Source: Eledone cirrhosa
Lineage: Eukaryota
Assembly: GCA_964016885.1 (NCBI GenBank)
Contig: OZ024758.1
Coordinates: 26,226,001 to 26,290,000, forward strand
Reading direction: 5' to 3'
DNA length: 64,000 bases
The first letter of the stretch is position 1; each line of letters opens with the position of its first letter. A model generated the notes under the pieces. The model worked only from the letters and a program-made list of their open reading frames with translations. It was not told the origin of the DNA and ran no database searches. Below, piece after piece: positions 2,174-39,305 of the stretch. The translations under genes were made by a program, and so were the position numbers.

Positions 2174-2303
2174 TTGCCGACAAAGTAATGGTTACTTCCA
2201 AGAATAATGACGATGACCAATATATTTGGGAATCTGATTCAGACTCCTTCCAAGTATCAAAAGATCCACGTGGCAATACTCTTGCTCGAGGAACTATTAT
2301 TAG
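2174..2303 (+). CDS. HSP90B1: HSP90B1 exon (ATPase domain: [23 protein letters not shown]...[13 protein letters not shown])
   Basis: ttttactttcag acceptor and AG|gtatgt donor; matches the GRP94 N-domain. Confidence 0.95.
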
Positions 2304-5300
2304 GTATGTCCAGTATACTTGCATTTTAATTTGTAAAATTCCTATTTGTTCTCTTATTGGGTATATCATATTTTATGTTTTACATGTGACGTTGGTAGAA
2401 TTAATTTCTTATTAGCTTCCCACAAGTCGAACCCCTTTGCCATTGAATATCATTAAGAATCTTCCTATTTGTTCTATTAAATATCTTAGCTTTCTTCAGA
2501 AAAACTCCATCTTTCCGACTATAGAACTTTTATATATTTTCAATCATTTCCAAAATTAGGCCTCTTATTATGGTGTTGCTAACTTAACCCTTTAGCATTT
2601 AAACTGGCTGAATCCGACCACAATTCTCTCACCTCTTGCTCTTCAAACTGGCCGTAACTGGCCACTCATACTGATGGTGAGGTATTGTTTTCAAAATAAA
2701 TATCAAAATCTCATAGATTCAATATTATATGAAATAATTATTTAAGGTAAAGCTTTTACTGTGAAAATACAATAGTAAATGTAAATGCTAAAGGGTTGTT
2801 TTCAATATTTATCTTTGGGTCAATTCCAAATATTGGGAGCTGCACAATGTGTTCAATTTCCAAGAAGAGTGATTTCTCTGGTCCTGCTAATGTCAGCCAT
2901 ATTTGCTCTATTTTCAAATTCTTAAATGTGATAGAAACAGCTTTGAACTATTACATTTATCACTCTTTTTATTGACAATTAATGTTTCTTGAAGAGCTAC
3001 ATCTGAGCAATGAGGTAATTGAAATCAACAAAGCTTCTTTTATGAGCTATGAAGCTAAGTTGGATGCCTCTGAGCTATATTCATCTTTCATCTCTTGAAT
3101 TATTTCTTTTCAAAACATTTCATCTATAAGCCATCCTTTACCAATGCTAGTAGACTTCAGATTTTGGGTAGACATTTCATGCTTTTTTTGTAAATTAATG
3201 ACATATTTAGTGTAACTGTGTCTCACATTGTATACTAAACTTGCACTGTTTCAATAAACACCTTTGAAAACTTCCAGTGAGGACATTAAAAAACCTAGTC
3301 CCCTTCAATAGCCCCTATATTCATGCACTACAGCCTCCATACAACTAAAATCTAGATCATTACAAATGCTAAGCTTCACACTGTCTAAATCCTGTGTAGA
3401 TTATATATATATATGCATGCGTGCTCCTGTAACTCCAGAGGGAGTCCTAGGGTCACTGTATTTACATAGGTTTCTAGGGCCTTTTTTAAACCTGGGGAGC
3501 ACATCTCTACAAGTCTGAATATAGCAGATTTCTTCCAGAGAAGGATAGAGAGTGAGAAAAAGATAGAGGAAAAATCGACCTCAGTATTTGACTGGTACTT
3601 TTTATTGACCTCGAATGGATGAAAGGCAAAGTTATTCTCAACAGGATTTAAACTCAGAGGGCCGAATCGTATACTGCAAAGCATTCTATCTGACATTCTA
3701 ACGACTCTGCCTCTGTACATATACACCATTGCCTAAACTACATCCCAAAGACTAAATTCCCTCTTCAGAACCAGAAAAGGTTTTGATCTGTTGCTGTCCT
3801 CTACAAAGTACAACCCATGTAGAACTACTGCTCCCATGAGATAGCACTGCCGCTACACTCTGAAACATTAAGAATTGGCCACTTTTTCAGTTGCGCTGTT
3901 TCTTCTCCATCTCTTCTAATATGCAGAAAATATCAATTTTTCTTCTATTTCGGAAATTACAAAAGAGGGTGGAACACTTACAATGAGCAAATTAAACAGA
4001 ATATATATTTTTGAATCTATTATTTTAGCTACTGAATCAGGAAATTCTAATGTGGAATTTTTTCAACAAATTTAATTTTTTAGCTTGCATCTAAAGGAGG
4101 AAGCTCATGATTATCTTGAAGAAAATACATTGAAAGACCTAATTAAGAAATACAGCCAATTTATAAATTTCAACATTTACCTTTGGACCAGCAAAGTAAG
4201 ATTTCTTGTCTTAGTTCAAGTTTAAATTCTTAATTTTTAACCATTTAGATGCATGAAATATTTTACTCTACTGGAATGTGTCAAGCACTACTAATGTAAC
4301 AATATATGCCATTTAGACAGAGAAAGTTGAAGAACCAGTTGAAGACGATGAAGAGAAACCAGCTGAAGAAAAGGATGAGGATGAAGATGAAGGCAAAGTT
4401 GAGGAAGAGAAAGAGGAAAAACCAAAATCCAAAACAGTTGAAAAAACAACTTGGGACTGGGAATTACTGAATAGTGTAAAACCTATCTGGACAAGAAAGT
4501 AAGGATATTGTCTTTATTGATACCCCATTTTTAATGTTAGAAAAATTAAAATAGTTTCTACAAATATTGTGCTTCTATATTTCAGAGCAAATGAAATTAC
4601 TGATGATGAATATAATGCCTTTTACAAGTCTATTAGCTCTGATTTCACTCCACCTATGGCTAAAATTCATTTCACTGCAGAAGGCGAAGTCACATTTAAA
4701 TCTATCTTATATGTGCCCAAAGTGTCTCCCAGTGATACTTTCAACAATTATGGAAAGAAAGCTGATCGTATTAAGGTCAGTCTTAGCTCTGTTTCTAGTT
4801 TTTCGAATGGCTGTGTTAAAATATTCATATACCTGATAAATCTTTTCCAACATTTTTTCTAATAGATGTATGTGGATATTTAAATGTGCAATTTTTTTTC
4901 TTTCAATAGATGTAGGTGCATATTTAAATGTGCAATTTTTTTTCTTTCAATAGATGTATGTGCATATTTAAATGTAGTTTTTTTTTTTTTTAATAGATGT
5001 GCATATTTAAATATATAGTTTGTTTTTTTTCTTTCAATAGATGTATGTGCATATTTAAATAGTTTTTTTTTCTTTCTTTCAATAGATGTATGTGCGCAGA
5101 GTCTTTATTACTGATGATTTTGAAGATATGATGCCAAAATACTTGAACTTTGTTTCAGGAGTGGTAAGTGTAATTCATGTTCTTATTTTCATTCTTAAGA
5201 CCAAATTTATTTTTCTAACAATTATTCCCATGCATGCATGGAAAAACAGACATAAAAACAATAACAATACCTATAAAATGTATTTTGGATTTGTTTATTA

Positions 5301-8300
5301 CAGGTCGATTCAGATGATCTTCCATTAAATGTATCTCGGGAAACTTTGCAACAGCATAAGCTTCTTAAAGTCATTAAAAAAAAACTTGTTCGTAAAACAT
5401 TGGACATGATTAAGAAAATTGACAAAGAAGAGTTTGCAAGCTTCTGGAAAGAATATAGCACAAAGTAAGCAATACATTTTCAGATTTTCTCAGTTATTTG
5501 TTTGAGTGCCTTACAGTGAAGTTTCTTGTTTAGCAAATATATTTGAAATACTTCAAAATTATTTTTACCTGTACTAAATGTATTTTGAATAGTAATATCG
5601 TTTAACATTCATTTGTCAATGTTTGGATAGGTTTCTTTGTTGTAGTTTACATCCTCTTGCAGTGTAAACAAGTCCCAGGATTGGCACTATCGATAGAGGA
5701 TCAGACACCATGCTTTGACGCATAGTTACTGCCCTTGCCATTCTGAGTTCAAATTCCGCCAAGGTTAACTTTACCTTTCATCCTTACGGGGTTGATAAAA
5801 TAAAGTACCAGTAATGTACTGGGTAATTGCTGGCCTTGTACCAAAAGTGGAAACAATTATTAGCACTGGAATTGGCAGTATCGGTTGAGGGTCAGACACC
5901 ATGCTTTGCAGCAAAGAGTTATAGCCCTTTATGGTCTGAGTTCAAATCCCGCCGAGGTTAACTTTGCCTTTCATCCTTACGGGGTCGATAAAATAAAGCA
6001 CCAGTAATACACTGGGATAATTGCTGGCCTTGTGCCAAAAGTAGAAACAATTATTAGCACTCAGCTGATTATTCCCTTTAAGAGGACTAAAGAGTCCTTT
6101 ATACCTTTTATCAGTTCTTCAGTTATTACCTCCTAGATAGAAAGTGTGTGGTCTGGCTTATGGACTCCACATCTCATACTGCCATTTTTTGGCATAGTTT
6201 CTGTGTAAGGGGTGCATTTCATATTGCTGCCATCACTAGTTGTCTGAAGCAAGACTGGATGATCTACCATCAACAACTTTAGTGTAAGGGGTGCATTTCA
6301 TATTGCTGCCATCACTAGTTGTCTGAAGCAAGACTAAAAAATATCCCCTCCACCCTGTAGCAGTTCTTTTAATTATTTGTAGCTTAGGTGTCTGTCTGGG
6401 GCATAGTTTTATTTGGATACTCTTAATATGGTTACATATTAACCCTTTAGTATACAAACCGACAGTATACAACCAGAATTATCTCGCCTCTTTCTGTTCA
6501 AACCGGCCATATCCAGCTGCTTATACCAATGTTGAGGTATTCGCAAAATAAATAATAATCTTGTAGATTTAATATTATGTGGGATAATGCCTTTACCGCA
6601 AAAATACAATAGAGTAATGTGAATACTAAAGGTTAAGTTATGGGGGTTACATGTGCAGCGTTTGGATCTGTACAGCAAGAGATATGGTTCTTTGCTATGT
6701 AGGTAATAGAGAAAAGGATGTTACAGAGGTCCTATGGCAACTGAGACTGAAGTCATTTTCATGTCATAGAAAAATGGTTGGAAAGAGGGAAGTTGACATT
6801 ACAACCTTTCACCTTAGACTAATGGCAGCTGAGTTGGATATGCCAACTGGTTGTCTCTGGATTAGGATAGTGCTTTGTTCCTACCCAAGAATTCTGTTAA
6901 CAATATTGTTACCAACCTGGCCAAAACCAGCTTTGGTCCTATGAAATAAAAACCACCATTTTTAAAGGTTTCCAATTTAAATTAAAATCTTCCAACTTAA
7001 TTTTATATAAGAACCTTACATTTACTATATTAGTAATGAAATAATTAGTAATTTTAGTAAATCACTCAAAATTCTTCATTAATTAATTGAAATAGTACAT
7101 TTCATTAGAAATACGGTCATGAAAGTGTTAAGATAGCTGTGGAGATAATCAATAGTAACCAAATGGAATGTTAAAATATAGTTATGCTTGTTATATAAAT
7201 ATTTCAGAAGCAATTTGTAAAATTTTTTTTTTATATATGTATAGATATCTCTTTTCAAGTACCTATATTGAGAATAACAACCTAAATTTATCATAAAAAT
7301 TTGTAAAATGTTTCAGCTGTCCTCAAGTTCACAGTAAACTTTTGATAGTTATTTTAAATATTGGAATGGGATTACTTAAAATAGTTTCTAATAAATATTT
7401 GTTTATTAAAATATACTTCACAACATTTTATAATATAAAATTTTTGCTATAAACTTTTTAGCATCAAGCTTGGTGTGATTGAAGATCCATCTAACAGGAC
7501 TAGACTTGCTAAACTTTTAAGATTTAACTCATCCAATTCTGATACTGAACAAACAAGTTTAGCAGAATATGTGGAAAGAATGAAAGAAAAACAAGCAGCA
7601 ATTTATTTTGTGGCTGGAGCATCTCAGAATGAGGTTAGAAAAACATTTTTTTTATTTATATGTATCATCATCATCATCAGGTTTAGCGTCCGTGTTCCAC
7701 GCTTGCATGGGTTTGGACGGGGGTTTTCCCACTTGAGGCAAGAGTGGTTGTCTTGCTCGCATAGGACTGTCTGGCGGGTTTTCTACAGTTGGATGCCCTT
7801 CCTAACACCAACCACATTTACAGTGTGGGGCTGGGAGGTTTTTACCGTGTTGCCTACACGGCCACATTACAGCGTGGACTGTCTGGCGGGTTTTCTACAG
7901 CTGGATGCCCTTCCTAACACCAACCACATTTACAGTGTGGGGCTGGGAGGTTTTTACCGTGTTGCCTACACGGCCACATTACAGCGTGGACTGTCTGGCG
8001 GGTTTTCTACAGCTGGATGCCCTTCCTAACACCAACCACATTTACAGTGTGGGGCTGGGAGGTTTTTACCGTGTTGCCTACACGGCCACATTTACAGCGT
8101 GGACTGTGTGTTTTTTGTCGTGACACCTACACGATCTCATTTGTTTCGGCCTGGATGTTGTGGGACCAACATAACTGTACATTGAAAGGGGTGGTGTGGA
8201 TGGGGTGGAGGTGGTGGGACGGGGGAGTGTTTTGATAGAGATGCCTACTGACTGTAGTAGGTTTTTACTTTGTATACATGTAGATTTTCTTTACAAGTGG

Positions 8301-11300
8301 CAGAAGATAAGTCTTAAAAGGTTTTTTTCACAAAATCTTTTTAAATATGAAATACATTTAGAACTGATACAAGTGTTCTCGTAATGAAACAAATGAGCAG
8401 CTTTTAACTCCATTTCACATATGCAGGGTGAGAGTTAATACACTTGATGTACTATACTTGTATCTGATGTAGAATCAAGTTAACCATTACCATGCATTGT
8501 TGCTTAGTCTTAAGTCGGTTCAAATTGAGTTCACTTATGATCAATAGATTCTATTGCTATTTCTAATTGATTGATTGATTTTGTAGGGATTTTTTCAATT
8601 TGACCATGCACTGTTTGTATAGTGTATATAATATTGCATTTGCTATTTCAATATCAGATGTTGTGGAAGAAAGCTAAATGTTAGTTTTTTTGTAGAAAAT
8701 TTGCAGCATAGTTTGAAATTGGGCTTACATCATTGAAGTATGCAGGCATGTTATCAATATATTTTCATCAGTTAGATTAACATAATTTACAAATATATGC
8801 CTGCCAAAAATTATAAGAATTGCCATATAGTGTATAAATTCTATATGTATAAAACTGATTTTATTCTATTTTTCTTCAAATAGCTAATCTTGTGTGCTTT
8901 CATTTAACCTAGTGTTTTAATTACAAAATTCTTTCACAAAACTAAAACGTTACATATATTGAATTTATTATATGCTATATGGAAACTTGAGTGATTTATG
9001 CCAAAGGGTGAATATAGAGCCAACCTTCTGGTAATCGGACCAGTGATCTTTTTGAGCAAATTTTTTATCAAAGTATTTCCATGCAGGACTACATTATTTG
9101 GTGTTGCCTTTTTTTTTTTCATAAATACAGTAGTTTATGGTTTAAGGAAGATTTGCAAACTTTATTATCTGTACTTGGGTAGAATTCTACGAAGAGATTT
9201 GCACAAAATTGGTTTCTTTGGAGCATTTACCTTTGTATTAGAGATCAATATTTCAACTATATCACAGGTGGTACAATTCTAAGATGGAAATAAAATCACA
9301 ATACTCTTTAAAAGATCTTTTACAGCTAACTAAATATCAAAATATACCAAAGAAACTGATTAGAAAATTGTAAATTTTAATATACTTGCTTCTAGAGATT
9401 TTTTTTTCTATTTTATTTGACATTAAATTTGCTATATTGACACACATGCTAAAGCACATTTATTCTCTTGCTATCTACTTCAATAGAAACATGCTTAGTA
9501 GAGCTAGTATATATTAAACTTAACCTTTATTGGAAGATCGATTTCAATAAACAAATCAAATAGTTATGTAGATTAAATTAAAACATTTTCATTATATGCT
9601 CTTTGATTTAAAAAGATTTTTTTGGTGTGTATGTGTGTGTATTTAGAAGCATGTTAACATAGCATATAAAATGACTTAAAACTAAAACATGATCGAGATG
9701 TGTGTGTGTGTATATATATTAGATTTGGTCATAGTTTTCTTATAAATATTAAGACTAAAAGAAACAAATACTTTGATGTGAAAGTTTGAACAAACTATTT
9801 AATCTTTGTTTCAGGTGAAAAATTCACCTTTTGTAGAGCGTCTGCTCAAGAAAGGTTATGAAGTACTCTATTTAGTAGAACCTGTTGATGAATACTGCAT
9901 TCAAGCTTTACCAGAATTTGAAGGCAAAAAGTTCCAAAATGTTGCCAAAGAAGGTCTAACTCTTTCTGATTCTGAAAGTGCTAAGGAAAAGAAAGAAAGT
10001 TTGGAAAAAGAATATGAACCCCTACTGAAATGGTTGAAAGAAGATGCATTGACCAATCGGGTAAATATATTTTCCTAAGTTTGAAATTTTCAACTCAGTA
10101 AGTAGTGGTGGTGTATAGAAGTGTGTAAATATTGATATAATTTACAGAAAATCTTAAAATTATTTGAAAGTATAATAAACATGTAACCCGTGTAAGAGAT
10201 TTCTTTTTAAGATATTTTGACTGAAATTTTTTTCTTTTATCAGATCGAAAAAGCTACAGTTTCTGAAAGATTGTCTTCCTCCCCGTGTGCCTTGATTGCT
10301 AGTCAATATGGTTGGTCTGGCAACATGGAACGAATTATGAGAGCCCAAGCCTATGCCAAAGCTAAAGATTCATCACAGGAGTAAGTTTCCAAGAGTTGTT
10401 TAAATTATTTTCTCTTAAATTACTTCATATTTTTTGTTCATTGAAACTAATATTTAAAGTAGTTCATGATCAATTATTTCCTGCAAGTGTATATAGTGTT
10501 GTAATTAAAAATGTTAATGTCTGTATTGAATTAATAGCTAATATTTTATATTAATCTTGTAATGCCTAATTATAAAAACAAGACTTCAAGGCATGTATAT
10601 AACCATTTTACCAGCAAAGTCAGCCGATACATATATTACTATGAAATTATACTATACTTAATTTATTTACAAGCAAAAATAAAATGAGATCATGTAGAAA
10701 TAGGGCGAGTTAAACTGATATTAATAGTCACTAGTCAATTTAATTGTTTTGTAATGAGAGGTATTGGAAAATGGGAGCTGTGATGTCTTTTTTCCCTAGG
10801 ATATTAGTGTTTTGAAACATCCAAACTTGAGTTCTGTGCTTAACGAGAACACACCCTGCCTACCACATTGTAGTTTAAGATAATCATGTCTAGCAATGAT
10901 ATAATTTTTTATATATTTGGATATATCTAATTTCAATTTATTTTTTATTCAGCTACTTTGCTAACCAGAAAAGAACACTTGAAATAAATCCCAGACACAA
11001 GCTTATCAGAAGTTTGAAAGAAAAAGTAGAGGTAAGTTTATTTCCAGGATGTATATAAAGTTAAGTGATGGTGTGTACAAAATAATTAATTGGAATTTGT
11101 GTATACTGCCACTTTTTTTTCTCCCTTTCTATTTTTTTAAAACCTAAATAAAAATTGCTGGAAAATCTTAGTTTTTTTTTTTTATTCTTGGTAAACTCTG
11201 CCAACTTTTGGTTAATAGAGAAGCCAAGCTGCTCATCAATTTATACTAGCTGATTACACAATGACCTTTGACCCACTGACTTCCCAGACACTTTGTCTGA

Positions 11301-14300
11301 ACACAACCTCATCACATCAGTTTGTATCAAAATACAATAGACTGTTAGACATCTAGAAATGTTGTACCAACTACATTCATGTGCTCACACAATTAACTAT
11401 TGCTGTGTTTCTTCAAATCCTGTAATTCATCTACAAATTACCAGCCTACAACTACATGGAATTTTATTACAAATTTAAGATGACATGCCTTTAAAATATC
11501 TGAGAGAGCAAAAATATGCTGTTGTACAATGTTGTTTGCAAATTCTTATATCTTTTCTACTGCAGCCATTCATTCCAGTCTCTTGCCAAACAGATTTTTT
11601 TGACTAACCTTAATTAACTCTATTAGTTCAGTAATCAGTTTATTGACAAAGTTGCTATATTTACTATTTTAGTTTGTGTTCAGAAATGCACAGTCTTGAC
11701 AATATCTCCATAAAATGATAGTCCAATTCTTTAGAAAGACCTTAATCACTTCAACAGCAACCTTCTTTCTTAAACTTACAAAATATATCACCTTGACCTA
11801 AGCACATTCTCTCCCTATTAGCCTCAGTTTTAACTCTCCAAAACCCTGATATTTTCTCTATCCTACTCTTGAATGTTTTCTTCTAAGCTATAACATTTCT
11901 TAGTTATCCCTACTTCTAAATATTCTGTGCCGACTAAATAAGCTTTTACAATCTATGACTATAACTTGTTTGTATTTTTAGAACAATAAAGATGATTCAA
12001 GTGCCAAAGATTTAGCTATTATACTGTTTGACACAGCTACTGTGAGATCTGGCTATTTAGTTGCTGATACTGCTGGTTTTGCTGGTAGAGTAGAGAGAAT
12101 GCTTCGATCAAGCCTGAATATTGAAGGTGGTGATATGGTAAGCTGATTTTAATGATATATTTCTTCATTTGTTCGCTAATACACTTAAATTTGTTTTCAA
12201 ACACTAGCGTAAAAGAAAGATTCTGTTTAACCCTTTCATTACCATTGTCTATGATTTTTAATTATTTTGAAAAGAATTGATAATTTGAAGGAATTTAGTA
12301 ATATAACTTTTATTAATCTGGTGTCTGGAACACAAAGGTTCTTGCATAAAATTGATAGATTTTTAGATAAATATTAACACTTTAAAACAGTTTTGTACCA
12401 GAACTAGGCATGGTTTCATGCAGTTTGCAATCAAAATGGTTAATTATATAACACATGGAACTATTTATATTTAGACTCAGTCTAATTTAATGACAGAAAT
12501 TAATCCCAGGATTTTTAAGTGATGTGAATTATTTTTTCTCTTCTTTAAGGTTGAAGAAGAGCCTGAAGAACCTGAAGAACAAGTAGACCAAGAAGAAAAA
12601 GCTGATGCCGTTGATGAGACAGAAGATGAAAAGGAAGAAAAAGTAAGTGAATAGGAAATTTGTGAGTGTATCTGTGAATATACTTTTCATAACCAAACTA
12701 AATAAATACTAGTTTACAAAAGTAGTAAATTTGTAATTATGATGCAATGAGAAGATAGAAATATTTCAGAAAAATCAGTGTTTGTGGTGGGAAAAAAATA
12801 ACCAAATTATATTACACTGATGGTAATCAGTTATGCTAATTAAACATAGGTATTTTATGTTTATATAATAAATTTACATAGGTAGGTTGATTTTCGTGTT
12901 TGGACAGGTCAGTTATTTTCAAATGATATCACAATAATATATTATCTTGAATTTTGAAAAATAGCAATATTGAATTGTCTTTACATTTGGATGTAAGTGG
13001 AATGTTCTAGATCACTGAAATTAATTCTAAGTTTTGAAATTTGATCTCCATTTTACAGAATATTGGTATAGATTTTTTAATAATTACAAAAGTACTTTCA
13101 CTAGATTAAGGACAAAACTGGCAAATTTTGTTTTATTAAAAAAAATAACCATGTTATCACAAGTTTCTTTACTATTTGTTTGCTTTACAATACCATAGCA
13201 TGTTGAACTCTACAAATTATTTGCATGATGTAATTTGCATGAATTTTGTGACAATAGTGTCAATTTTTAACCTTCCAGTTATTGTGTTGCTGCTTTTGCC
13301 TTTGTGTGTGTACCCTTCACTTTGCAAAATTGAAGGGCAGAATTCTTGTTCTTCTTGACAATTACTTATCTATCGCATTGAAGCGTTAATACCACTTGAG
13401 AAATGTTGTTCTCTCTCTTATATAACCCTTTCGTTACCAACCTACTCAATACTGGCCACACCTAGTCATATTTAAACCAAAATATCAACTATATTTTACT
13501 GGATTAGAAATAGCACCTGAATTACCTATATGCCAACAACATAAATTTTGTATTAAGATGTTTTTTTTATATATATATATATATATAATGTTCTACCATT
13601 TTATTAAAATTACGTAAAAATAAATAAGCTTTAAACTTAGTAATAGTGGCTCTGAATGCAATAAATAATGCATCAAGCATAGTATACATGGTAGACATTG
13701 AATTGGGTGTTTTAATTTCTAAGTATGTAAACAATGTTGGGCTGTAATATTGAAAGCAATTTCCAGAAACAATGGAGAGAGGAATAATCTTTAAATATTG
13801 TCAGAAGCAACCAGACCCAATAAGTTATCCTCATAACTCAAAGCCCATTGACTATTTACTTTTATTCCAATTCAAGTATTCTATATAATGTCAGACTAAT
13901 TGCTGTGTATAAGGATGAAATTAGGACATTTTGCCATAAATATAATAATGGGCATTTAGTAGGTTATATAATGCATTGGCAAATAACTTAAAAACTTCAA
14001 CTTTTGTTGAAATATATATCAGATTTTCCCTATATTAAGCTGTAATTAGTTTTGAGACAAATTCCATAATAGATTTATGGAAGAATCTTTTAGTTTGTCA
14101 AAGCGCTGCTTAAATATAAGTTTTATTCAATATATTTGATTGATATAAAAGCCAATCTAAATTCGGATATTTTAGAATATAATTAAGGTTGGATTTTAAT
14201 TAGGAATATAGTAACGAAAGGGTTCATTGCAAATAGGATCTAGATGAATTGAAATTATAGAAATAGTCTAAGTAGTCTATAGATGACATGACTAATAGCT

Positions 14301-14499
14301 ATTCATTCATTATATCTATATATATAAGCATGGTGTGTTTTGACACTTCCACTAACTGTTTTGTTAGACTTTGCTAGTGTGCACACACAAACAAGGCAGA
14401 AAGGCGAAAGGCACACAGAACTGGCTGGCAAAGGATTCTGTGTTTATAACATATTACTTTTCATTTTATCAGGTATCCCATCATTCAGATGAATTATAA
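2174..14499 (+). CDS. HSP90B1: Endoplasmin/GRP94 (HSP90B1) gene, 5'-partial, 13 coding exons in window: 2174-2303, 4084-4195, 4317-4498, 4586-4775, 5086-5163, 5304-5464, 7462-7633, 9815-10060, 10244-10380, 10953-11031, 11982-12137, 12550-12642, 14473-14499
   Basis: All exons are bounded by AG/GT with compatible phases. The spliced translation carries HSP90 hallmarks ([67 protein letters not shown]) and ends in SDEL instead of the cytosolic MEEVD, which identifies the ER paralog. Confidence 0.97.
2588..2795. mobile_element. piggyBac-like MITE (TIR ccctttagcattta)
   Basis: ttaa|ccctttagcatttaaa ... taaatgctaaaggg; same family at 6443-6633, 44232-44450, 62873-63080 and 63457-63857. Confidence 0.75.
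4084..4195 (+). CDS. HSP90B1: HSP90B1 exon ([37 protein letters not shown])
   Basis: tttttag acceptor, AAA|gtaaga donor; HSP90 motif [10 protein letters not shown]. Confidence 0.95.
4317..4498 (+). CDS. HSP90B1: HSP90B1 exon (charged linker TEKVEEP...[18 protein letters not shown])
   Basis: atttag acceptor, AA|gtaagg donor; acidic linker plus KPIWTR motif. Confidence 0.95.
4586..4775 (+). CDS. HSP90B1: HSP90B1 exon ([15 protein letters not shown]...[17 protein letters not shown]...RIK)
   Basis: tttcag acceptor, AAG|gtcagt donor; middle-domain motif [14 protein letters not shown]. Confidence 0.95.
4852..5095 (+). repeat. Tandem array of six ~44-bp copies of the exon-5086 splice acceptor region
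   Basis: Unit (t)n-ctttcaatag|atgtatgtgcatatttaaat; AG dinucleotides end at 4865, 4909, 4953, 4996, 5040 and 5085. Confidence 0.9.
5086..5163 (+). CDS. HSP90B1: HSP90B1 exon ([26 protein letters not shown])
   Basis: ttcaatag acceptor, GTG|gtaagt donor; HSP90 motif YVRRVFI. Confidence 0.95.
5304..5464 (+). CDS. HSP90B1: HSP90B1 exon ([39 protein letters not shown]...)
   Basis: ttacag acceptor, AA|gtaagc donor; catalytic-loop motif DLPLNVSRE. Confidence 0.96.
5678..5860 (+). mobile_element. tRNA-derived SINE (family A)
   Basis: A-box-like tggcagtatcgg, B-box gagttcaaatcc, body gcctttcatccttacggggtcgataaaataaagtaccag, tail tgtgccaaaagtagaaacaatt; more than 10 copies in the window. Confidence 0.85.
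5868..6055 (+). mobile_element. tRNA-derived SINE (family A), tandem second copy
   Basis: Same consensus, directly following the 5678 copy. Confidence 0.85.
6443..6633. mobile_element. piggyBac-like MITE, diverged
   Basis: ttaa|ccctttagtat...aatactaaagg|ttaa; internal sequence similar to 2588-2795. Confidence 0.65.
7462..7633 (+). CDS. HSP90B1: HSP90B1 exon ([21 protein letters not shown]...[14 protein letters not shown]...)
   Basis: tttttag acceptor, GAG|gttaga donor; conserved HSP90 middle domain. Confidence 0.95.
7664..8270 (-). mobile_element. RTE-tailed SINE with an internal 112-bp segment triplicated
   Basis: ggactgt unit starts at 7764, 7876, 7988 and 8101. Confidence 0.8.
9815..10060 (+). 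CDS. HSP90B1: HSP90B1 exon ([47 protein letters not shown]...)
   Basis: tttcag acceptor, CGG|gtaaat donor. Confidence 0.96.
10244..10380 (+). CDS. HSP90B1: HSP90B1 exon ([37 protein letters not shown]...)
   Basis: tttatcag acceptor, GA|gtaagt donor; [10 protein letters not shown] motif. Confidence 0.96.
10953..11031 (+). CDS. HSP90B1: HSP90B1 exon ([26 protein letters not shown])
   Basis: tattcag acceptor, GAG|gtaagt donor; LEINPRH motif. Confidence 0.95.
11982..12137 (+). CDS. HSP90B1: HSP90B1 exon ([25 protein letters not shown]...[17 protein letters not shown])
   Basis: tttttag acceptor, ATG|gtaagc donor; C-terminal dimerisation domain. Confidence 0.95.
12550..12642 (+). CDS. HSP90B1: HSP90B1 penultimate exon, acidic tail ([11 protein letters not shown]...EDEKEEK), phase-0 donor
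   Basis: ttctttaag acceptor, AAA|gtaagt donor; 31 whole codons. Confidence 0.93.
13426..14222. mobile_element. ~800-bp piggyBac-like non-autonomous element in the last HSP90B1 intron
   Basis: 12-bp TIR ccctttcgttac / gtaacgaaaggg, flanked by ataa and ttca (degenerate TTAA). Confidence 0.6.
14473..14499 (+). CDS. HSP90B1: HSP90B1 canonical terminal exon, coding part (VSHHSDEL*)
   Basis: ttttatcag acceptor, phase 0; GTA TCC CAT CAT TCA GAT GAA TTA TAA ends in a KDEL-like retention signal. Confidence 0.92.
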   Translation, partial: VSHHSDEL

Positions 14500-14753
14500 C
14501 CTCATTGAAGAGGAATTATTCAGTTCCCACTAACAAAGTTGGCAGCTGTTGTTCCTGACAAGTGTGAAATTTCCTATTACCACCAAGCACCACCTATCAA
14601 CTACTTTGGAGAATTCCACTAATACTTCATCAAATATTGCTGTCAAATATCATTTCATTTTTGAGAGGACTTTTCTCAGTTTGTTTCTGTATTTTTTTCA
14701 TGTGAAACTGTTATGCCTGAAGTGAATTGAAAGTGTACACATCATTCTTTGTG

Positions 14754-14759
14754 AATAAA
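14754..14759 (+). terminator. Candidate polyadenylation signal for the SDEL isoform
   Basis: AATAAA ~255 nt after the stop, followed by a pyrimidine-rich tract; a second AATAAA lies at ~14998-15003. Confidence 0.5.
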
Positions 14760-16212
14760 TCTTTCTAATTATTCTATCTCTTTTTCTGCCCTCCTCCCCT
14801 GGAGCTTAAAATAATCTGTTTCTTTTATAACAATGATAAAAAAAAAATAGTTTTGCATCTGTATCCATTTTCATTCAACCTTTGAGAACTATTTATAGAA
14901 GCCATTTACTGACAAGAAACCTTTTTTCTTCTATTGTCAAAGCCTTTTGGTTAATATTTTATGTATTTATAGTTTTTAAATATTTTATTTGAATACAAAT
15001 AAACTGGATAAAACTAATTATAATTTTAGTTCCTACTTAATATTTTCATTAAAATAACTGAAAAATGCTTAACTTGAATTTTCTTTTACTGCTCGAGGAA
15101 ATCTTTTCCTACTGAAAGTGTCGGGATCTATTTATAATCTGATTATAGCCAATTTTCAAAATGTACAATTGGGTTTTATGGTTCAGTTTTTTCCCGTCTT
15201 CATTAATGATGTGGATTATATTTAGTTTAAAGTAGGTAAAAGTCAAATTCACTCTTTCTTTTCTTCCTTCTGACCACAAAACATCCTCTTCCAGTAATTT
15301 CCTTGCTAAAAACATCCCAAATATTGTAACTTGATATAATTGCAGTGTTAAATATATTAATTTTAAACATTACTTTAATCCAATTTTGTTTGTGAAGATC
15401 ACTTATTAAAATCATAATCTAAACATGCCAATTAATGTATGCCCTGCAATGCATGCTTTCGCTTTTTTTTTTTTATATGAACAAAGCTTTTTAAAAAATA
15501 TTTGCAAATGGCATTCTGTGCTTAATAATGGTTGATAATGGTTGAATGCAAATACTTTACTTTTTTAAGATGATCAATTGAAAATATAATGACTGGTTTT
15601 ACTTTTCAAAAAACCATATAGAAAAATCAAAAGGCTTGTTTGTAGCTTTAAGAAAATTAAGATTTACTCTGATCTCCTTTTTTTTGTCTTTACTATGTTT
15701 TGGGGGGGGGTTTTTGTTTTGTTTTTTTTAGAACTTTAAGGTTGAGGGAAATAAATGTTTCCTTTAGCCAGCCATGTATATCAGTTTCATAAAGCTGCTT
15801 TTAGGACATATAATGTTTGGTGTGTGTAAACAACAAAGCACAGGAATCAAAAGAAACTGAATATGAGAGGAATCAAATGGAGTGTAAGAGATTGTACTGG
15901 TACAGATAGATGCTGATTGTTGAGTGGAAAGATGCCAGGAGTTCTGAATAAAAGGGAGATCTGGTATAGGAAGGGCAAGAAGACTGACAAAGATAGTGAA
16001 AACATATCTCAGGATGTTGGACCTTGGAGAGAACTCATTTAACCAAAGTGTGCATGGAAAAACTGTAGAAAAGGATGTAGATCAGTTTATTTTATGAGAA
16101 GAGATTAAGGACGGTACCAAGCACAGACTGTTCGGCAAGAAGATGCAATGAATTATAAAACCTTTATTGCAATGAATTATAAAACCTTTATTGTATTACA
16201 TGAATTATTACA

Positions 16213-27290: not shown

Positions 27291-27299
27291 TAGCGCTAA

Positions 27300-28047: not shown

Positions 28048-31000
28048 GGACATATTTTTTCTAGAAGAAAATTACTTTCGATTGATGAGAAACAGAGCTC
28101 CCCAAAACTGAAGGAAGACAGTGATGGTGATGGTATCCCTGACCACCTAGAGGGAGACAGTGATGGTGATGGTATCCCTGACTACAAAGAAGATGCTGAT
28201 GGTGATGGTATCCCAGATTATCTAGATAATGATGATGATGGTGATGGTATCCCTGACCACCTAGAGGGAGACAGTGATGGTGATGGTATCCCTGACTACA
28301 AAGAAGATGCTGATGGTGATGGTATCCCAGATTATCTAGATGATGATGATGATGGTGATGGTATACCAGATCATCTGGAGGGAGACAGTGATGGTGATGG
28401 TATCCCTGACTACAAAGAAGATGCTGATGGTGATGGTATCCCAGATTATCTAGATAATGATGATGATGGTGATGGTATCCCTGACCACTTAGAGGGAGAC
28501 AGTGATGGTGATGGTATCCCTGACTACAAAGAAGATGCTGATGGTGATGGTATCCCAGATTATCTAGATGATGATGATGATGGTGATGGTATACCAGACC
28601 ATCTGGAGGGAGACAGTGATGGTGATGGTATCCCTGACTACAAAGAAGATGCTGATGGTGATGGTATCCCAGATTATCTAGATAATGATGATGATGGTGA
28701 TGGTATCCCTGACCACCTAGAGGGAGACAGTGATGGTGATGGTATCCCAGACTACAAAGAAGATGCTGATGGTGATGGTATCCCAGATTATCTAGATAAT
28801 GATGATGATGGTGATGGTATCCCTGACCACCTAGAGGGAGACAGTGATGGTGATGGTATCCCAGACTACAAAGAAGATGCTGATGGTGATGGTATCCCAG
28901 ATTATCTAGATGATGATGATGATGGTGATGGTATACCAGACCATCTGGAGGGAGACAGTGATGGGGATGGTATCCCTGACCACCTAGAGGGAGACAGTGA
29001 TGGTGATGGTATCCCAGACTACAAAGAAGATGCTGATGGTGATGGTATCCCAGATTATCTAGATAATGATGATGATGGTGATGGTATACCAGACCATCTG
29101 GAGGGAGACAGTGATGGTGATGGTATCCCTGACTACAAAGAAGATGCTGATGGTGATGGTATCCCAGATTATCTAGATGATGATGATGATGGTGATGGTA
29201 TCCCTGACCACCTAGAGGGAGACAGTGATGGTGATGGTATCCCAGACTACAAAGAAGATGCTGATGGTGATGGTATCCCAGATTATCTAGATAATGATGA
29301 TGATGGTGATGGTATACCAGATCATCTGGAGGGAGACAGTGATGGTGATGGTATCCCAGACTACAAAGAAGATGCTGATGGTGATGGTATCCCAGATTAT
29401 CTAGATAATGATGATGATGGTGATGGTATACCAGATCATCTGGAGGGAGACAGTGATGGTGATGGTATCCCAGACTACAAAGAAGATGCTGATGGTGATG
29501 GTATCCCAGATTATCTAGATAATGATGATGATGGTGATGGTATCCCAGACCATCTGGAGGGAGACAGTGATGGTGATGGTATCCCAGACTACAAAGAAGA
29601 TGCTGATGGTGATGGTATCCCAGATTATCTAGATAATGATGATGATGGTGATGGTATCCCAGACCATCTGGAGGGAGACAGTGATGGTGATGGTATCCCA
29701 GACTACAAAGAAGATGCTGATGGTGATGGTATCCCAGATTATCTAGATGATGATGATGATGGTGATGGTATCCCTGACCATCTGGAGGGAGACAGTGATG
29801 GTGATGGTATCCCAGACTACAAAGAAGATGCTGATGGTGATGGTATCCCAGATTATCTAGATAATGATGATGATGGTGATGGTATCCCAGACCATCTGGA
29901 GGGAGACAGTGATGGTGATGGTATCCCTGACCACCTAGAGGGAGACAGTGATGGTGATGGTATCCCTGACTACAAAGAAGATGCTGATGGTGATGGTATC
30001 CCAGATTATCTAGATGATGATGATGATGGTGATGGTATCCCTGACCACCTAGAGGGAGACAGTGATGGTGATGGTATCCCAGACTACAAAGAAGATGCTG
30101 ATGGTGATGGTATCCCAGATTATCTAGATAATGATGATGATGGTGATGGTATCCCTGACCACCTAGAGGGAGACAGTGATGGTGATGGTATCCCAGACTA
30201 CAAAGAAGATGCTGATGGTGATGGTATCCCAGATTATCTAGATGATGATGATGATGGTGATGGTATACCAGATCATCTGGAGGGAGACAGTGATGGTGAT
30301 GGTATCCCAGACTACAAAGAAGATGCTGATGGTGATGGTATCCCAGATTATCTAGATGATGATGATGATGGTGATGGTATACCAGATCATCTGGAGGGAG
30401 ACAGTGATGGTGATGGTATCCCAGACTACAAAGAAGATGCTGATGGTGATGGTATCCCAGATTATCTAGAGGATGATGATGATGGTGATGGTATACCAGA
30501 TCATCTGGAGGGAGACAGTGATGGTGATGGTATCCCTGACTACAAAGAAGATGCTGATGGTGATGGTATCCCAGATTATCTAGATGATGATGATGATGGT
30601 GATGGTATACCAGATCATCTGGAGGGAGACAGTGATGGTGATGGTATCCCAGACTACAAAGAAGATGCTGATGGTGATGGTATCCCAGATTATCTAGATA
30701 ATGATGATGATGGTGATGGTATCCCTGACCACCTAGAGGGAGACAGTGATGGTGATGGTATCCCAGACTACAAAGAAGATGCTGATGGTGATGGTATCCC
30801 AGATTATCTAGATGATGATGATGATGGTGATGGTATACCAGATCATCTGGAGGGAGACAGTGATGGTGATGGTATCCCAGACTACAAAGAAGATGCTGAT
30901 GGTGATGGTATCCCAGATTATCTAGATGATGATGATGATGGTGATGGTATACCAGATCATCTGGAGGGAGACAGTGATGGTGATGGTATCCCAGACTACA

Positions 31001-34000
31001 AAGAAGATGCTGATGGTGATGGTATCCCAGATTATCTAGAGGATGATGATGATGGTGATGGTATACCAGATCATCTGGAGGGAGACAGTGATGGTGATGG
31101 TATCCCTGACTACAAAGAAGATGCTGATGGTGATGGTATCCCAGATTATCTAGATGATGATGATGATGGTGATGGTATACCAGATCATCTGGAGGGAGAC
31201 AGTGATGGTGATGGTATCCCTGACTACAAAGAAGATGCTGATGGTGATGGTATCCCAGATTATCTAGATAATGATGATGATGGTGATGGTATCCCTGACC
31301 ACCTAGAGGGAGACAGTGATGGTGATGGTATCCCAGACTACAAAGAAGATGCTGATGGTGATGGTATCCCAGATTATCTAGATGATGATGATGATGGTGA
31401 TGGTATCCCAGACCATCTGGAGGGAGACAGTGATGGTGATGGTATCCCAGACTACAAAGAAGATGCTGATGGTGATGGTATCCCAGATTATCTAGATGAT
31501 GATGATGATGGTGATGGTATCCCAGACCATCTGGAAGTTGACAGTGATGGTGATGGTATCCCAGATTCACTTGATACAGATAGTAATGTTGATGGTATGC
31601 CCCAGAAAATTTCACCCATAAAAGATACGGATGGTGATGGTATACCTGATCACCTTGACGACGATGCCAATGGAAACAACATACCTGACAAACTGGAGGT
31701 AGATAGCGATGGTGATGGTATATTGGACTACAAGGAAGACAGCGATGGTGATGGTATTCCTGATTATTTAGACTGTGATGCCGATGGTAACGGTATACCA
31801 GATAAATTAGAAAAGGACAGATACGGAAATAAAATACTGGAGTACAAAAAGGACACTGATGGTGATGGTATCCCAGATTATCTAGATGATGATGCTGATG
31901 GTGATGGTATACCAGACCATCTGGAGGGAGACAGTGATGGTGATGGTATCCCAGACTACAAAGAAGATGCTGATGGTGATGGTATCCCAGATTATCTAGA
32001 TGATGATGATAATGGTGATGGTATACCAGATCATCTGGAGGGAGACAGTGATGGTGATGGTATCCCAGACTACAAAGAAGATGCTGATGGTGATGGTATC
32101 CCAGATTATCTAGATGATGATGATGATGGTGATGGTATACCAGATCATCTGGAGGGAGACAGTGATGGTGATGGTATCCCAGACTACAAAGAAGATGCTG
32201 ATGGTGATGGTATCCCAGATTATCTAGATGATGATGATGATGGTGATGGTATCCCTGACCACCTAGAGGGAGACAGTGATGGTGATGGTATCCCAGACTA
32301 CAAAGAAGATGCTGATGGTGATGGTATCCCAGATTATCTAGATGATGATGATGATGGTGATGGTATCCCTGACCACCTAGAGGGAGACAGTGATGGTGAT
32401 GGTATCCCAGACTACAAAGAAGATGCTGATGGTGATGGTATCCCAGATTATCTAGATGATGATGATGATGGTGATGGTATCCCTGACCACCTAGAGGGAG
32501 ACAGTGATGGTGATGGTATCCCAGACTACAAAGAAGATGCTGATGGTGATGGTATCCCAGATTATCTAGATGATGATGATGATGGTGATGGTATCCCTGA
32601 CCACCTAGAGGGAGACAGTGATGGTGATGGTATCCCAGACTACAAAGAAGATGCTGATGGTGATGGTATCCCAGATTATCTAGATGATGATGATGATGGT
32701 GATGGTATCCCTGACCACCTAGAGGGAGACAGTGATGGTGATGGTATCCCAGACTACAAAGAAGATGCTGATGGTGATGGTATCCCAGATTATCTAGATG
32801 ATGATGATGATGGTGATGGTATACCAGATCATCTGGAGGGAGACAGTGATGGTGATGGTATCCCAGACTACAAAGAAGATGCTGATGGTGATGGTATCCC
32901 AGATTATCTAGATGATGATGATGATGGTGATGGTATACCAGATCATCTGGAGGGAGACAGTGATGGTGATGGTATCCCAGACTACAAAGAAGATGCTGAT
33001 GGTGATGGTATCCCAGATTATCTAGATGATGATGATGATGGTGATGGTATCCCTGACCACCTAGAGGGAGACAGTGATGGTGATGGTATCCCAGATTACA
33101 AAGAAGATGCTGATGGTGATGGTATCCCAGATTATCTAGATGATGATGATGATGGTGATGGTATACCAGACCATCTGGAGGGAGACAGTGATGGTGATGG
33201 TATCCCAGACTACAAAGAAGATGCTGATGGTGATGGTATCCCAGATTATCTAGATGATGATGATGATGGTGATGGTATACCAGATCATCTGGAGGGAGAC
33301 AGTGATGGTGATGGTATCCCAGACTACAAAGAAGATGCTGATGGTGATGGTATCCCAGATTATCTAGATGATGATGATGATGGTGATGGTATACCAGATC
33401 ATCTGGAGGGAGACAGTGATGGTGATGGTATCCCAGACTACAAAGAAGATGCTGATGGTGATGGTATCCCAGATTATCTAGATGATGATGATGATGGTGA
33501 TGGTATCCCTGACCACCTAGAGGGAGACAGTGATGGTGATGGTATCCCAGATTACAAAGAAGATGCTGATGGTGATGGTATCCCAGATTATCTAGATGAT
33601 GATGATGATGGTGATGGTATCCCTGACCATCTGGAGGGAGACAGTGATGGTGATGGTATCCCAGACTACAAAGAAGATGCTGATGGTGATGGTATCCCTG
33701 ATTATCTAGATGATGATGATGATGGTGATGGTATCCCTGACCACCTAGAGGGAGACAGTGATGGTGATGGTATCCCAGACTACAAAGAAGATGCTGATGG
33801 TGATGGTATCCCAGATTATCTAGATGATGATGATGATGGTGATGGTATACCTGACCATCTGGAGGGAGACAGTGATGGTGATGGTATCCCAGACTACAAA
33901 GAAGATGCTGATGGTGATGGTATCCCAGATTATCTAGATGATGATGATGATGGTGATGGTATCCCTGACCACCTAGAGGGAGACAGTGATGGTGATGGTA

Positions 34001-37000
34001 TCCCAGACTACAAAGAAGATGCTGATGGTGATGGTATCCCAGATTATCTAGATGATGATGATGATGGTGATGGTATACCAGATCATCTGGAGGGAGACAG
34101 TGATGGTGATGGTATCCCAGACTACAAAGAAGATGCTGATGGTGATGGTATCCCAGATTATCTAGATGATGATGATGATGGTGATGGTATACCAGATCAT
34201 CTGGAGGGAGACAGTGATGGTGATGGTATCCCAGACTACAAAGAAGATGCTGATGGTGATGGTATCCCAGATTATCTAGATGATGATGATGATGGTGATG
34301 GTATACCAGATCATCTGGAGGGAGACAGTGATGGTGATGGTATCCCAGACTACAAAGAAGATGCTGATGGTGATGGTATCCCAGATTATCTAGATGATGA
34401 TGATGATGGTGATGGTATACCAGATCATCTGGAGGGAGACAGTGATGGTGATGGTATCCCAGACTACAAAGAAGATGCTGATGGTGATGGTATCCCAGAT
34501 TATCTAGATGATGATGATGATGGTGATGGTATACCAGATCATCTGGAGGGAGACAGTGATGGTGATGGTATCCCAGACTACAAAGAAGATGCTGATGGTG
34601 ATGGTATCCCAGATTATCTAGATGATGATGATGATGGTGATGGTATACCTGACCATCTGGAGGGAGACAGTGATGGTGATGGTATCCCAGACTACAAAGA
34701 AGATGCTGATGGTGATGGTATCCCAGATTATCTAGATGATGATGATGATGGTGATGGTATACCTGACCATCTGGAGGGAGACAGTGATGGTGATGGTGTC
34801 CCAGACTACAAAGAAGATGCTGATGGTGATGGTATCCCAGATTATCTAGATGATGATGATGATGGTGATGGTATACCTGACCATCTGGAGGGAGACAGTG
34901 ATGGTGATGGTATCCCAGACTACAAAGAAGATGCTGATGGTGATGGTATCCCAGATTATCTAGATGATGATGATGATGGTGATGGTATCCCAGACCATCT
35001 GGAGGGAGACAGTGATGGTGATGGTATCCCTGACTACAAAGAAGATGCTGATGGTGATGGTATCCCAGATTATCTAGATGATGATGATGATGGTGATGGT
35101 ATCCCTGACCACCTAGAGGGAGACAGTGATGGTGATGGTATCCCAGACTACAAAGAAGATGCTGATGGTGATGGTATCCCAGATTATCTAGATGATGATG
35201 ATGATGGTGATGGTATCCCTGACCACCTAGAGGGAGACAGTGATGGTGATGGTATCCCAGACTACAAAGAAGATGCTGATGGTGATGGTATCCCAGATTA
35301 TCTAGATGATGATGATGATGGTGATGGTATCCCAGACCATCTGGAGGGAGACAGTGATGGTGATGGTATCCCTGACTACAAAGAAGATGCTGATGGTGAT
35401 GGTATCCCAGATTATCTAGATGATGATGATGATGGTGATGGTATACCTGACCATCTGGAGGGAGACAGTGATGGTGATGGTATCCCAGACTACAAAGAAG
35501 ATGCTGATGGTGATGGTATCCCAGATTATCTAGATGATGATGATGATGGTGATGGTATACCAGATCATCTGGAGGGAGACAGTGATGGTGATGGTATCCC
35601 AGACTACAAAGAAGATGCTGATGGTGATGGTATCCCAGATTATCTAGATGATGATGATGATGGTGATGGTATACCAGATCATCTGGAGGGAGACAGTGAT
35701 GGTGATGGCATCCCAGACTACAAAGAAGATGCTGATGGTGATGGTATCCCAGATTATCTAGATGATGATGATGATGGTGATGGTATACCTGACCATCTGG
35801 AGGGAGACAGTGATGGTGATGGTATCCCTGACTACAAAGAAGATGCTGATGGTGATGGTATCCCAGATTATCTAGATGATGATGATGATGGTGATGGTAT
35901 ACCTGACCATCTGGAGGGAGACAGTGATGGTGATGGTATCCCAGACTACAAAGAAGATGCTGATGGTGATGGTATCCCAGATCACCTGGATAATGATGAT
36001 GATGGTGATGGTATCCCTGACCACCTAGAGGGAGACAGTGATGGTGATGGTATCCCAGACTACAAAGAAGATGCTGATGGTGATGGTATCCCAGATTATC
36101 TAGATAATGATGATGATGGTGATGGTATCCCTGACCACCTAGAGGGAGACAGTGATGGTGATGGTATCCCAGACTACAAAGAAGATGCTGATGGTGATGG
36201 TATCCCAGATTATCTAGATGATGATGATGATGGTGATGGTATCCCAGATCACCTGGATGATGATGGCGAAGCTGTTCTTGGTCACATTGTTTTAGACAGT
36301 GATGGTGATGGTATTGCTGATTATTTGAAAGATACTGATGGTGATGGTATCCCTGACTATCTAGATGAAGATGATGATGGTGATGGTATCCCAGATACTT
36401 TAGATGATGATAAAGATGGTGATGGTATTCTTGACTACATCGACCTTGATTTAGATGGTGACGGTATTACTGATGCCAATAAAGATCACACTGTTGACAT
36501 GGAAACAGACACTGATGGTGATGGTATCCCGGACTATCTTGATGATGACGATGATGGTGATGGCATCCCTGATGCAGATGAAGAAACTGATGGTGATGGT
36601 GATGGTATACCTGACCATTTAGATGATGATAGTGATGGTGATGGCATTCCAGATAAATTGGAAGGGGATTCTGATGGGGATGGTATCCCAGACTACAAGG
36701 AAGATGCTGATGGTGATGGTATCCCTGACTATCTAGATGATGATGATGATGGTGATGGTATCCCAGATAGTGAAGAACAAGCTGATTCTTGTGAGGGTGA
36801 TTCTTGTGAGCAGACAGAAGATGAAGTTCCTAGTCTAATCTCCCAAATAGTTTCAGTAGTAGAGGAAGTGAAATCTAAAATGCCTCCATTAATTGTTCTT
36901 GAAGAAGATGATGGAAAGGAAAAAGAAGCTGATATTTTTGCAAATGTCAAGGAAATTGAACAGCTTGATCATGAAGAAAAGATTGACTTACTCTCAGTTC

Positions 37001-37070
37001 TAGAACAGGCTTCATCTCACACATATAAACAATTCATGGACTCTTTCACCACATCAGATGAGAAAGATCG
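28048..37070 (+). CDS. Giant 9,023-bp exon encoding ~3,007 aa of Asp/Gly-rich DxDGDGIPD (thrombospondin type-3-like, Ca2+-binding) repeats; probable alternative 3' exon of HSP90B1
   Basis: Strong acceptor gtgtttccttctcttatttttag|GGA, whose TAG is itself an in-frame stop. The frame is open from 28048 to TAA 37072-37074 and is the same frame as the listed 31597 ORF, with no Met before 31597. Differences between repeats are almost all synonymous in this frame. A CG|gtaaat donor sits at 37071. Confidence 0.88.
28117..31566 (+). repeat. Coding tandem array 1, 114-bp unit (LEGDSDGDGIPDY-KEDADGDGIPDY-LD[D/N]DDDGDGIPDH), ~30 units
   Basis: Period of 114 bp is directly visible (ctagagggagac at 28147 and 28261); two extra 39-bp submodules near 28950 and 29900. 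Confidence 0.95.
31861..36260 (+). repeat. Coding tandem array 2, same 114-bp unit, ~38 units
   Basis: Near-identical units, almost exclusively the DDDDD variant; separated from array 1 by a ~300-bp block of diverged repeats. Confidence 0.95.
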
Positions 37071-38194: not shown

Positions 38195-38360
38195 TTTGTT
38201 TGCAAGAAAACAGCCTCATAAACACCACGAGTTAGATGACCAACATCATCCCTTTGTTCCAGTGGCGGTAGCTGAGAGAAAACAATCGACAATTGTTTCA
38301 GAGTTTTATTCCTTATCGAGATTGTCTATTCTCGTCACTGATACCCACTGGAACTGCTGA
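38195..38360 (+). CDS. Candidate terminal exon of the giant-repeat transcript ((R)LFARKQPHKHHELDDQHHPFVPVAVAERKQSTIVSEFYSLSRLSILVTDTHWNC*)
   Basis: gatattcag acceptor. Phase 2 matches the 37070 donor (CG|T = Arg). 54 stop-free codons in a GC-richer island within very AT-rich DNA. Confidence 0.6.
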
Positions 38361-38968: not shown

Positions 38969-38999
<31 letters not shown>

Positions 39000-39305
39000 C
39001 ATGTGTGTATACATGTGTGTGGCAGTGTAGGTGCTGTTCACCAGAAGTATTGCAAGGAAAAATTTATAAACAGATCTCTTTAATTCCATTTATGTTAAAC
39101 AGACATGCAAACACACACACAATCTGACAGGCTGATACACATACACACACACATGCATTCACACATACTCACATAAACACACACACACTTACAATACATA
39201 AACATATACAGTCATCTGTATTTTTAACTGTGTATATATGTTAGAATTTGTGTATAAAAAAAATTGAAAAATTCCATTACAGCCTTTAACATAGTATTAC
39301 CTATT

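Follow-up and report, generated by a model that had tools for sequence, protein, structure and literature searches.

To which gene does an exon belong that runs open for 9 kb and encodes an Asp-rich repeat protein? The question is raised by a 64,000-nucleotide stretch of the genome of the cephalopod Eledone cirrhosa (assembly GCA_964016885.1, contig OZ024758.1, positions 26,226,001 to 26,290,000 of the forward strand), here called the window. Within it the giant exon lies downstream of, and on the same strand (+) as, the 3' part of the GRP94/HSP90B1 gene, which fills the first 15.6 kb (Table 1). An earlier note on this DNA had treated the exon as coding for a stand-alone protein, a very high-capacity Ca2+ buffer or mineral-nucleating scaffold that owed its origin either to convergence or to a captured bacterial-type motif. 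What the evidence favors instead is that GRP94/HSP90B1, present as a single gene, uses the exon as an alternative 3' end, which would provide the chaperone with a cleavable Ca2+ store tail, and we give this whole reading a probability of roughly 0.62. Judged from the sequence, the joining of the giant exon to GRP94 is in itself quite probable, while the full mechanism is somewhat favored.

The stop-to-stop frame at 28048-37074 (+) comprises 3,008 amino acids (aa), of which the giant exon supplies 3,007 codons, open throughout as the earlier note had described for one exon of ~9 kb; a pyrimidine-rich AG acceptor lies directly 5' of 28048 and a GT directly after 37070. Asp makes up 37% and Glu 5.6% of its product, whose isoelectric point (pI) is near 4. 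The array is close to the density first estimated, the figure of ~230 motifs being slightly high: 221 D-x-D-G-D-G motifs were counted (216 of the form D-x-DGDGIPD, 224 with a looser pattern), spaced by 13 residues 148 times and by 12 residues 70 times. Complete 38-aa units of 12+13+13 residues number 66 rather than ~68 and form two blocks flanking a diverged insert; Tandem Repeats Finder reports 71.2 copies of 114 bp with diverged parts counted in. The most frequent unit (46 of 66) has exactly the composition originally read from it, 15 Asp, 2 Glu, 1 Lys and 1 His. The units are also free of Cys, as had been claimed; the exon as a whole has three, one in the diverged insert and two in the tail. 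Variant alleles across the 66 units comprise 14 synonymous and 6 non-synonymous changes against 23 and 91 sites (binomial p=2e-6, an optimistic value, the units being related and not independent), which upholds the view that unit differences are mostly synonymous and that selection acts on the protein. An antisense frame of 2,801 aa was rejected as a shadow, with 1 synonymous and 19 non-synonymous variants.

There is very little chance that the exon is real with its length inflated by assembly, or that the array is a decaying satellite. Such a history would fit the one DNA unit type that is present 16 times, as well as an exact 570-bp tandem duplication at 30058-31197 (five units, by variant pattern), a product of either recent unequal crossover or an assembly effect. 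It fits poorly with the 25 distinct DNA unit types among the 66 units, the diverged insert, the lack of any stop or frameshift in the 9-kb array and the synonymous excess, and homologous arrays in flukes reach 66 motifs. The array is single-copy in the genome (3.0 Gb), where the remaining matches are weak; the best of them (L004, G000:C4:22981001-22990000) is a CAT/CAC microsatellite field that mimics DGDGDG in translation and was dismissed as a paralogue.

The repeats are of the thrombospondin type 3 (TSP3) kind. In the Pfam comparison that had been suggested as a check, the giant exon matches both TSP3_bac (PF18884, 154 bits) and TSP_3 (PF02412, 122 bits) above the 25-bit cut-off, and COMP (PDB 3fby) is the sole match to the array in a search of solved structures. 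The type 3 repeat has the consensus DxDxDGxxDxxD (PMC10702128), and 219 loops in the giant exon fit DxDxDGxxDxx[DE], 76 ending in D and 143 in E. Type 3 repeat sites in thrombospondin bind Ca2+ binuclearly (PMC3123361), and Cys-poor bacterial TSP3 pieces are described with four and eight bound Ca2+ (PMC12152738). The array of the giant exon thus very probably binds Ca2+, as far as its sequence can tell, and by our estimate should hold one to two ions per loop, or some 220-440 ions per chain. A low-confidence single-sequence AlphaFold model has a pLDDT of 51 and a pTM of 0.10.

The gene upstream can be identified with confidence. Five further GRP94 exons precede the window, among them a candidate signal-peptide exon with a hydrophobic core, 13.2 kb before the window. 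The model obtained once 10 kb of upstream DNA is added, with 16 GT-AG exons and 766 open codons besides the candidate signal-peptide exon, is 74% identical to Lymnaea GRP94 and 49% identical to cytosolic HSP90, with the HSP90 N, middle and C domains present and the frame intact. It is the sole GRP94-type match in a search of the genome, which returned two 51% matches besides, probably cytosolic HSP90. In a tree of 15 rows, the window sequence falls inside the animal GRP94 clade and apart from cytosolic HSP90 (support 100/99), adjoining gastropod sequences (82/90). A sequencing run, X1, judged RNA-like solely from its GT..AG joints, contains the joints 12136>12549 and 12642>14473 with GT..AG ends, and a contig of 3,485 nt that carries the GRP94 short form and stops at 15632. 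This form ends in HSDEL, a C-terminal signal for retention in the endoplasmic reticulum (ER).

Several features of the locus connect this gene to the giant exon. The donor at 12642, which closes the penultimate GRP94 exon, is in phase 0, as is the start of the giant exon. Its acceptor at 28048 has a score of 10.4, ranking 4th of 793 AG sites in 15700-28048 and lying inside the range of GRP94's own acceptors. Among ATG-to-GT candidates in 15633-28047, none makes a convincing signal-peptide exon for the giant exon; the best were set aside for weak donors or badly placed hydrophobic cores. Of the words sampled from 36250-37070, a fraction of 0.95 is present in run X1, a weak indication as X1 contains intronic pieces too.

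Protein records from other animals present the same combination. A query consisting of the diverged repeats and the tail was compared with proteins of 1,653-5,263 aa; of the best 120 matches, 115 are prokaryote-type or unnamed, and five are trematode HSP90 proteins (2,845-3,259 aa), all five standing in the top 14. In the reverse search, the GRP94 part was compared with proteins of 914-2,909 aa, and among the best 120 of 404 matches an array follows GRP94 in 14: twelve from trematodes, P0163 from Lymnaea stagnalis and the unnamed P0193. With cluster members added there are 33 long records, 31 of them from 17 trematode species, though many are isoforms or close relatives and the set perhaps represents two or three independent lineages. 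The trematode and Lymnaea records are named just "endoplasmin" or "unnamed" (for example XP_018651354.1, KAG5444747.1 and CAL1526239.1); Pfam reports no TSP3 in the four long records scanned, a possible reason for the plain naming. HSP90 domains are complete in the long records, the C-terminal dimerisation region included, and a KDEL-type end occurs in none of those inspected.

The point at which the two forms part company is also comparable. In S. mansoni, the short P0259 (796 aa) and the long P0151 (2,126 aa) have identical GRP94 rows in the tree alignment, are alike through the acidic tail, and their divergence begins 11 residues ahead of where the short record stops; for the two GRP94 ends of the window the corresponding distance would be 8 residues. 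The 10-residue word PDHLEGDSDG is found 69 times in the window, and all 5 trematode matches share it, against 0 of the 115 others in the best 120. Among the matches listed, the longest exact word shared with the window measures 15-22 aa in 10 of the 11 animal records compared, the eleventh, P0149, lying below the rows listed, against a median of 10 and a maximum of 17 for the 115 prokaryote-type matches. The alike junction, the matching divergence point in S. mansoni and the common repeat word argue for one homologous arrangement. Recent capture of a bacterial TSP3 gene was rejected, since the window array is nearer to animal arrays and the 115 others do without the shared word; of the origins first proposed, a very old derivation of the motif from bacteria is still conceivable.

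The linker between GRP94 and the array has a conserved feature of its own, a predicted site for site-1 protease (SKI-1/MBTPS1). The junction reads F-S-R-R-K-L-L-S-I-D in the window and F-C-N-R-K-L-M-S-A-D in Lymnaea, each a few residues past the GRP94 acidic tail, and RKLL aligns with RKLM/RRLM of the two gastropod-type long records and RRLL of the trematode ones. R[RK]L[LM] is present in the linker of 32 of the 33 long records, often twice, and the exception carries RRLF; within the 152,876 residues of the listed GRP94-search proteins, 24 of 27 such motifs fall in long records. The protease has the consensus R-X-aliphatic-Z, and RRLL and RKLM are known sites, RRLL being cleavable as early as the ER/cis-Golgi (PMC8310232). 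RKLL in the window satisfies this motif in a protein predicted to enter the secretory pathway. Its persistence amid a fast-changing linker suggests processing, and on such sequence grounds cleavage at RKLL is moderately probable. A CxxC directly precedes R[RK]L[LM] in most long records of trematodes and in the two of gastropod type (P0004, P0014, P0163, P0193 and others), but is missing in the window and in Calicophoron.

The linker motif also bears on whether the same splice form might remain uncleaved. A giant GRP94 would then stay in the ER or sarcoplasmic reticulum and couple the chaperone to a local Ca2+ reservoir, possibly because it forms dimers with the short form or because Ca2+ drives its condensation. 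The completeness of the HSP90 domains in the long records, with their dimerisation region, is in keeping with this, as is an internal HHEL in the candidate last exon. Its difficulty is that R[RK]L[LM] is maintained, frequently in duplicate, where the surrounding sequence changes fast, and that the long records inspected end without a KDEL-type signal; we regard permanent retention of the intact chain as unlikely.

Other observations weigh against joining the exon to GRP94. In X1 the GRP94 contig passes without a break to the last exon of the short form, and the joints listed (1,029 weaker ones lie beyond them) include none that leads into 28048, though X1 contigs are of a kind that drops minor transcript forms. 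A 509-nt X1 contig at 27612-28120 runs unspliced across the 28048 acceptor. With an intronic depth of 2.5-7, its depth would imply ~110-155 over the 73 exonic bases, as might be expected of a minor spliced form with its joint pruned or beyond those listed; the calculation is not counted as evidence because contig depth cannot rank gene parts. The long records are all database gene models, with no cDNA seen across the junction, and GRP94 models fused to neighbors are common among the best 120 of 404 matches. Bivalves, annelids, cestodes, planarians and other cephalopods contribute no long form to the two lists of 120, and the scallop GRP94 is reported solely as a protein of 798 aa (PMC8535295). 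Nor does the tail, which the earlier note had offered as a route to orthologs, lead to relatives: a word-index search of proteins of 166-2,000 aa confirmed 0 of 92 candidates, HMMER over 1.84 billion representatives gave no match, the best ESM Atlas value was 0.82 (low recognition) and Pfam returned nothing. Homology with the C-terminal helix of the trematode proteins was not supported either, 198 of 1,000 shuffles scoring equally.

Some of these points would suit a separate tandem gene with its own short first exon behind GRP94, encoding a secreted or luminal acidic Ca2+-binding product with a short propeptide, the models having been fused by mistake. X1 splices the GRP94 short form only and has the unspliced contig over the acceptor, fused GRP94 models recur in other clades, and an RxLL placed shortly behind the signal peptide is a typical mark of a propeptide. 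Yet a good signal-peptide exon was not found in the 12.4-kb gap, the adjacency would have to last across molluscs and flukes, and annotations made independently agree on where the joint lies. The four fusions inspected, from teleosts, paddlefish and a hemichordate, moreover lack R[RK]L[LM]. We therefore consider two neighboring genes improbable, and the splice form of GRP94 is retained as the better account.

The fused models are themselves diverse. In teleosts, some 20 records named "endoplasmin" and ~1,200 aa long (P0156-P0181) combine GRP94 with RIIa and cNMP-binding domains (protein kinase A regulatory-like), through recurrent read-through or annotation fusion; in Polyodon (paddlefish, P0179) a GRP94 model is fused to a PF03167 protein, and in Glandiceps (hemichordate, P0183) to an EGF_CA protein that begins with CxxC and is presumably CRELD-like. 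Bdelloid rotifer GRP94 records (P0189-P0191) measure 1,060-1,100 aa, with ~300 extra N-terminal residues.

Two ends are available to the long form. The donor at 37070 is weak, scoring 3.1 against 5.9-13.2 for GRP94's own donors (those being in the training set), and the giant exon may for this reason be terminal, ending at the TAA at 37072-37074. The tail ending LFARKQ given in the earlier note needs a splice from this donor to the acceptor at 38195, which ranks 7th of 125 AG sites in 37100-41000. A terminal KDEL-type signal is given by neither the stop at 37074 nor the His-rich exon at 38195, in which HHEL is a retention-like word in a non-terminal position. The tail is helical in a low-confidence single-sequence AlphaFold model; trematode long forms (P0009, P0014, P0147, P0151, P0261) end in a conserved amphipathic-looking helix between acidic runs.

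Taken together, the best reading is an old spiralian splice form that combines GRP94, a cleavage site and a high-capacity Ca2+ array without KDEL. Most transcripts would use the donor at 12642 to reach the tiny HSDEL exon, the joint seen in X1, while some would leave out this exon together with its polyA site and be joined to 28048, 15.4 kb further on. The resulting long chain, ~3,830 aa without the signal peptide and ~410 kDa, would run from signal peptide through complete GRP94, RKLL and ~220 TSP3-type loops to the helical tail, with no KDEL-type end. Its GRP94 part would bring a signal peptide, access to the ER, expression regulated by stress and perhaps the ability to dimerise. The unretained precursor could then arrive at site-1 protease and be cut after RKLL, releasing a ~320-kDa polyanion (net charge ~-1,190) as a luminal or granule Ca2+ store and also yielding GRP94 without a retention signal.

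The released polyanion might instead be exported as a mineral-handling matrix of statoliths, calcium cells or granules. This would agree with 37% Asp, a pI near 4 and the absent retention signal, and acidic proteins are common in mollusc biominerals. The spacing of the motifs, however, suits defined TSP3 loops and not poly-Asp, a mineral-oriented literature search yielded no such protein, and the form is kept in flukes, which are shell-less. Export as a mineral matrix thus seems even less likely than either a retained chain or a separate gene. Because shell-less flukes keep the long form, a Ca2+ store is favored over a mineral matrix, a choice that we hold at about even odds; the selected, TSP3-like, very high-capacity Ca2+ array of the earlier note is supported as a prediction, and its mineral nucleation is not preferred.

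Table 1. Positions of the GRP94/HSP90B1 exons, the giant exon and their parts in the window
Feature	Position	Strand	Remarks
GRP94/HSP90B1 internal coding exons	11 exons within 2174..12137	+	all GT-AG, open
GRP94 exons 1-6 of the window set	2174-2303, 4084-4195, 4317-4498, 4586-4775, 5086-5163, 5304-5464	+	
GRP94 exons 7-11 of the window set	7462-7633, 9815-10060, 10244-10380, 10953-11031, 11982-12137	+	
GRP94 penultimate exon (acidic tail)	12550..12642	+	phase-0 donor; proposed branch point
GRP94 ordinary last exon	14473..15632	+	8 codons to HSDEL-stop (ER retention), then 3' untranslated region
Giant exon	28048..37070	+	phase 0 start; proposed alternative 3' exon of GRP94
RKLL, predicted site-1 protease (SKI-1/MBTPS1) site	28066..28077	+	linker, ten residues past the joint
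First block of 38-aa TSP3-like units	28117..31539	+	
Diverged insert	31540..31929	+	motifs degenerate; contains one Cys
Second block of 38-aa units	31930..36248	+	
Diverged motifs, 3' flank of the array	36249..36770	+	
Non-repeat tail	36771..37070	+	~100 aa; predicted helical, single copy in genome
Candidate last exon of the long form	38195..38360	+	open in the required phase; His-rich start

Beyond these features, the window contains ~48 copies of a 20-bp satellite at 39301-40287 and, at 40932-41927, a TA-rich array of 1 kb whose higher-order period is 253 bp. By their look we take sequences at 26722-27306, 51221-51799 and 55877-57280 to be reverse-transcriptase-like remnants of long interspersed nuclear elements (LINEs), accompanied by many apparent copies of short ones (SINEs).

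The literature searched, which includes only a minority of subscription papers, gave no description of a long GRP94 form. Excerpts of a survey of S. mansoni heat shock proteins list endoplasmin and leave a long form unmentioned (PMC9559072), as do those of a paper on the evolution of ER Ca2+ handling, in which sarcalumenin and calsequestrin are counted among the parts of the ER Ca2+ store (PMC7016017). We tentatively suggest an ancient use, in molluscs and flatworms, of the GRP94 gene as a polyprotein, in which a splice switch would yield chaperone, a calsequestrin-like Ca2+ sponge and GRP94 able to leave the ER; in the window, the sponge would have grown to ~220 loops, with possibly hundreds of Ca2+ per chain. 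If true, this would tie ER proteostasis, site-1 protease and Ca2+ storage together in a new way, and would explain the oversized fluke "endoplasmin" entries. For molluscs and flatworms, the array would be a candidate for the Ca2+ buffer of high capacity in lumen or granules, and its carrier would give rise to GRP94 that is not retained.

HSP90 chaperones are among the proteins most constant in architecture. The window gene shares with known GRP94/endoplasmin the complete N, middle and C domains, the signal peptide and the HSDEL short form; it would differ in a second, downstream end, where a predicted cleavage site and ~3,000 aa of Ca2+-loop repeats would replace the retention signal, and the array region has no counterpart among the vertebrate GRP94 records compared. 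The long models of trematodes and Lymnaea have the same order of GRP94, R[RK]L[LM] and DxDGDG array, with repeat words in common, but their arrays reach up to 66 motifs with basic spacers and Cys between them and apparently occupy several exons, whereas in the window a single exon carries ~220 motifs of nearly pure sequence. The thrombospondin/COMP family consists of EGF domains, Cys-linked type 3 repeats and an L-lectin C-terminal domain (PMC6526912). Its type 3 repeats share with the window array the consensus, the Pfam match and the solved-structure match; the window array lacks Cys-linked inserts, EGF and L-lectin, two thirds of its loops end in Glu, and it has more than ten times as many loops. 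Membership of that family was rejected, TSP3 being the only domain matched in the exon and Cys numbering 3 in 3,007 aa. Bacterial TSP3 arrays (PF18884), found in surface proteins linked to OmpA and the type IX secretion system (T9SS), resemble the window in their Cys-poor DxDGDGIPD motifs, the best Pfam score and the bulk of the listed matches, but they lack the animal 13/12 linker word, and the window array belongs to a spliceosomal gene, in which it follows an ER chaperone. Sarcalumenin, junctate/ASPH, HRC, calsequestrin and the calcium-binding acidic-repeat protein of Euglena are luminal, acidic Ca2+ buffers of high capacity, and in sarcalumenin and ASPH (junctate) alternative splicing joins the acidic part to an enzyme-like core. 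The splice logic proposed for the window is similar, with no sequence link to its array seen; what would set it apart from sarcalumenin-type buffers is an HSP90 carrier, ordered TSP3 loops and a protease site between the parts.

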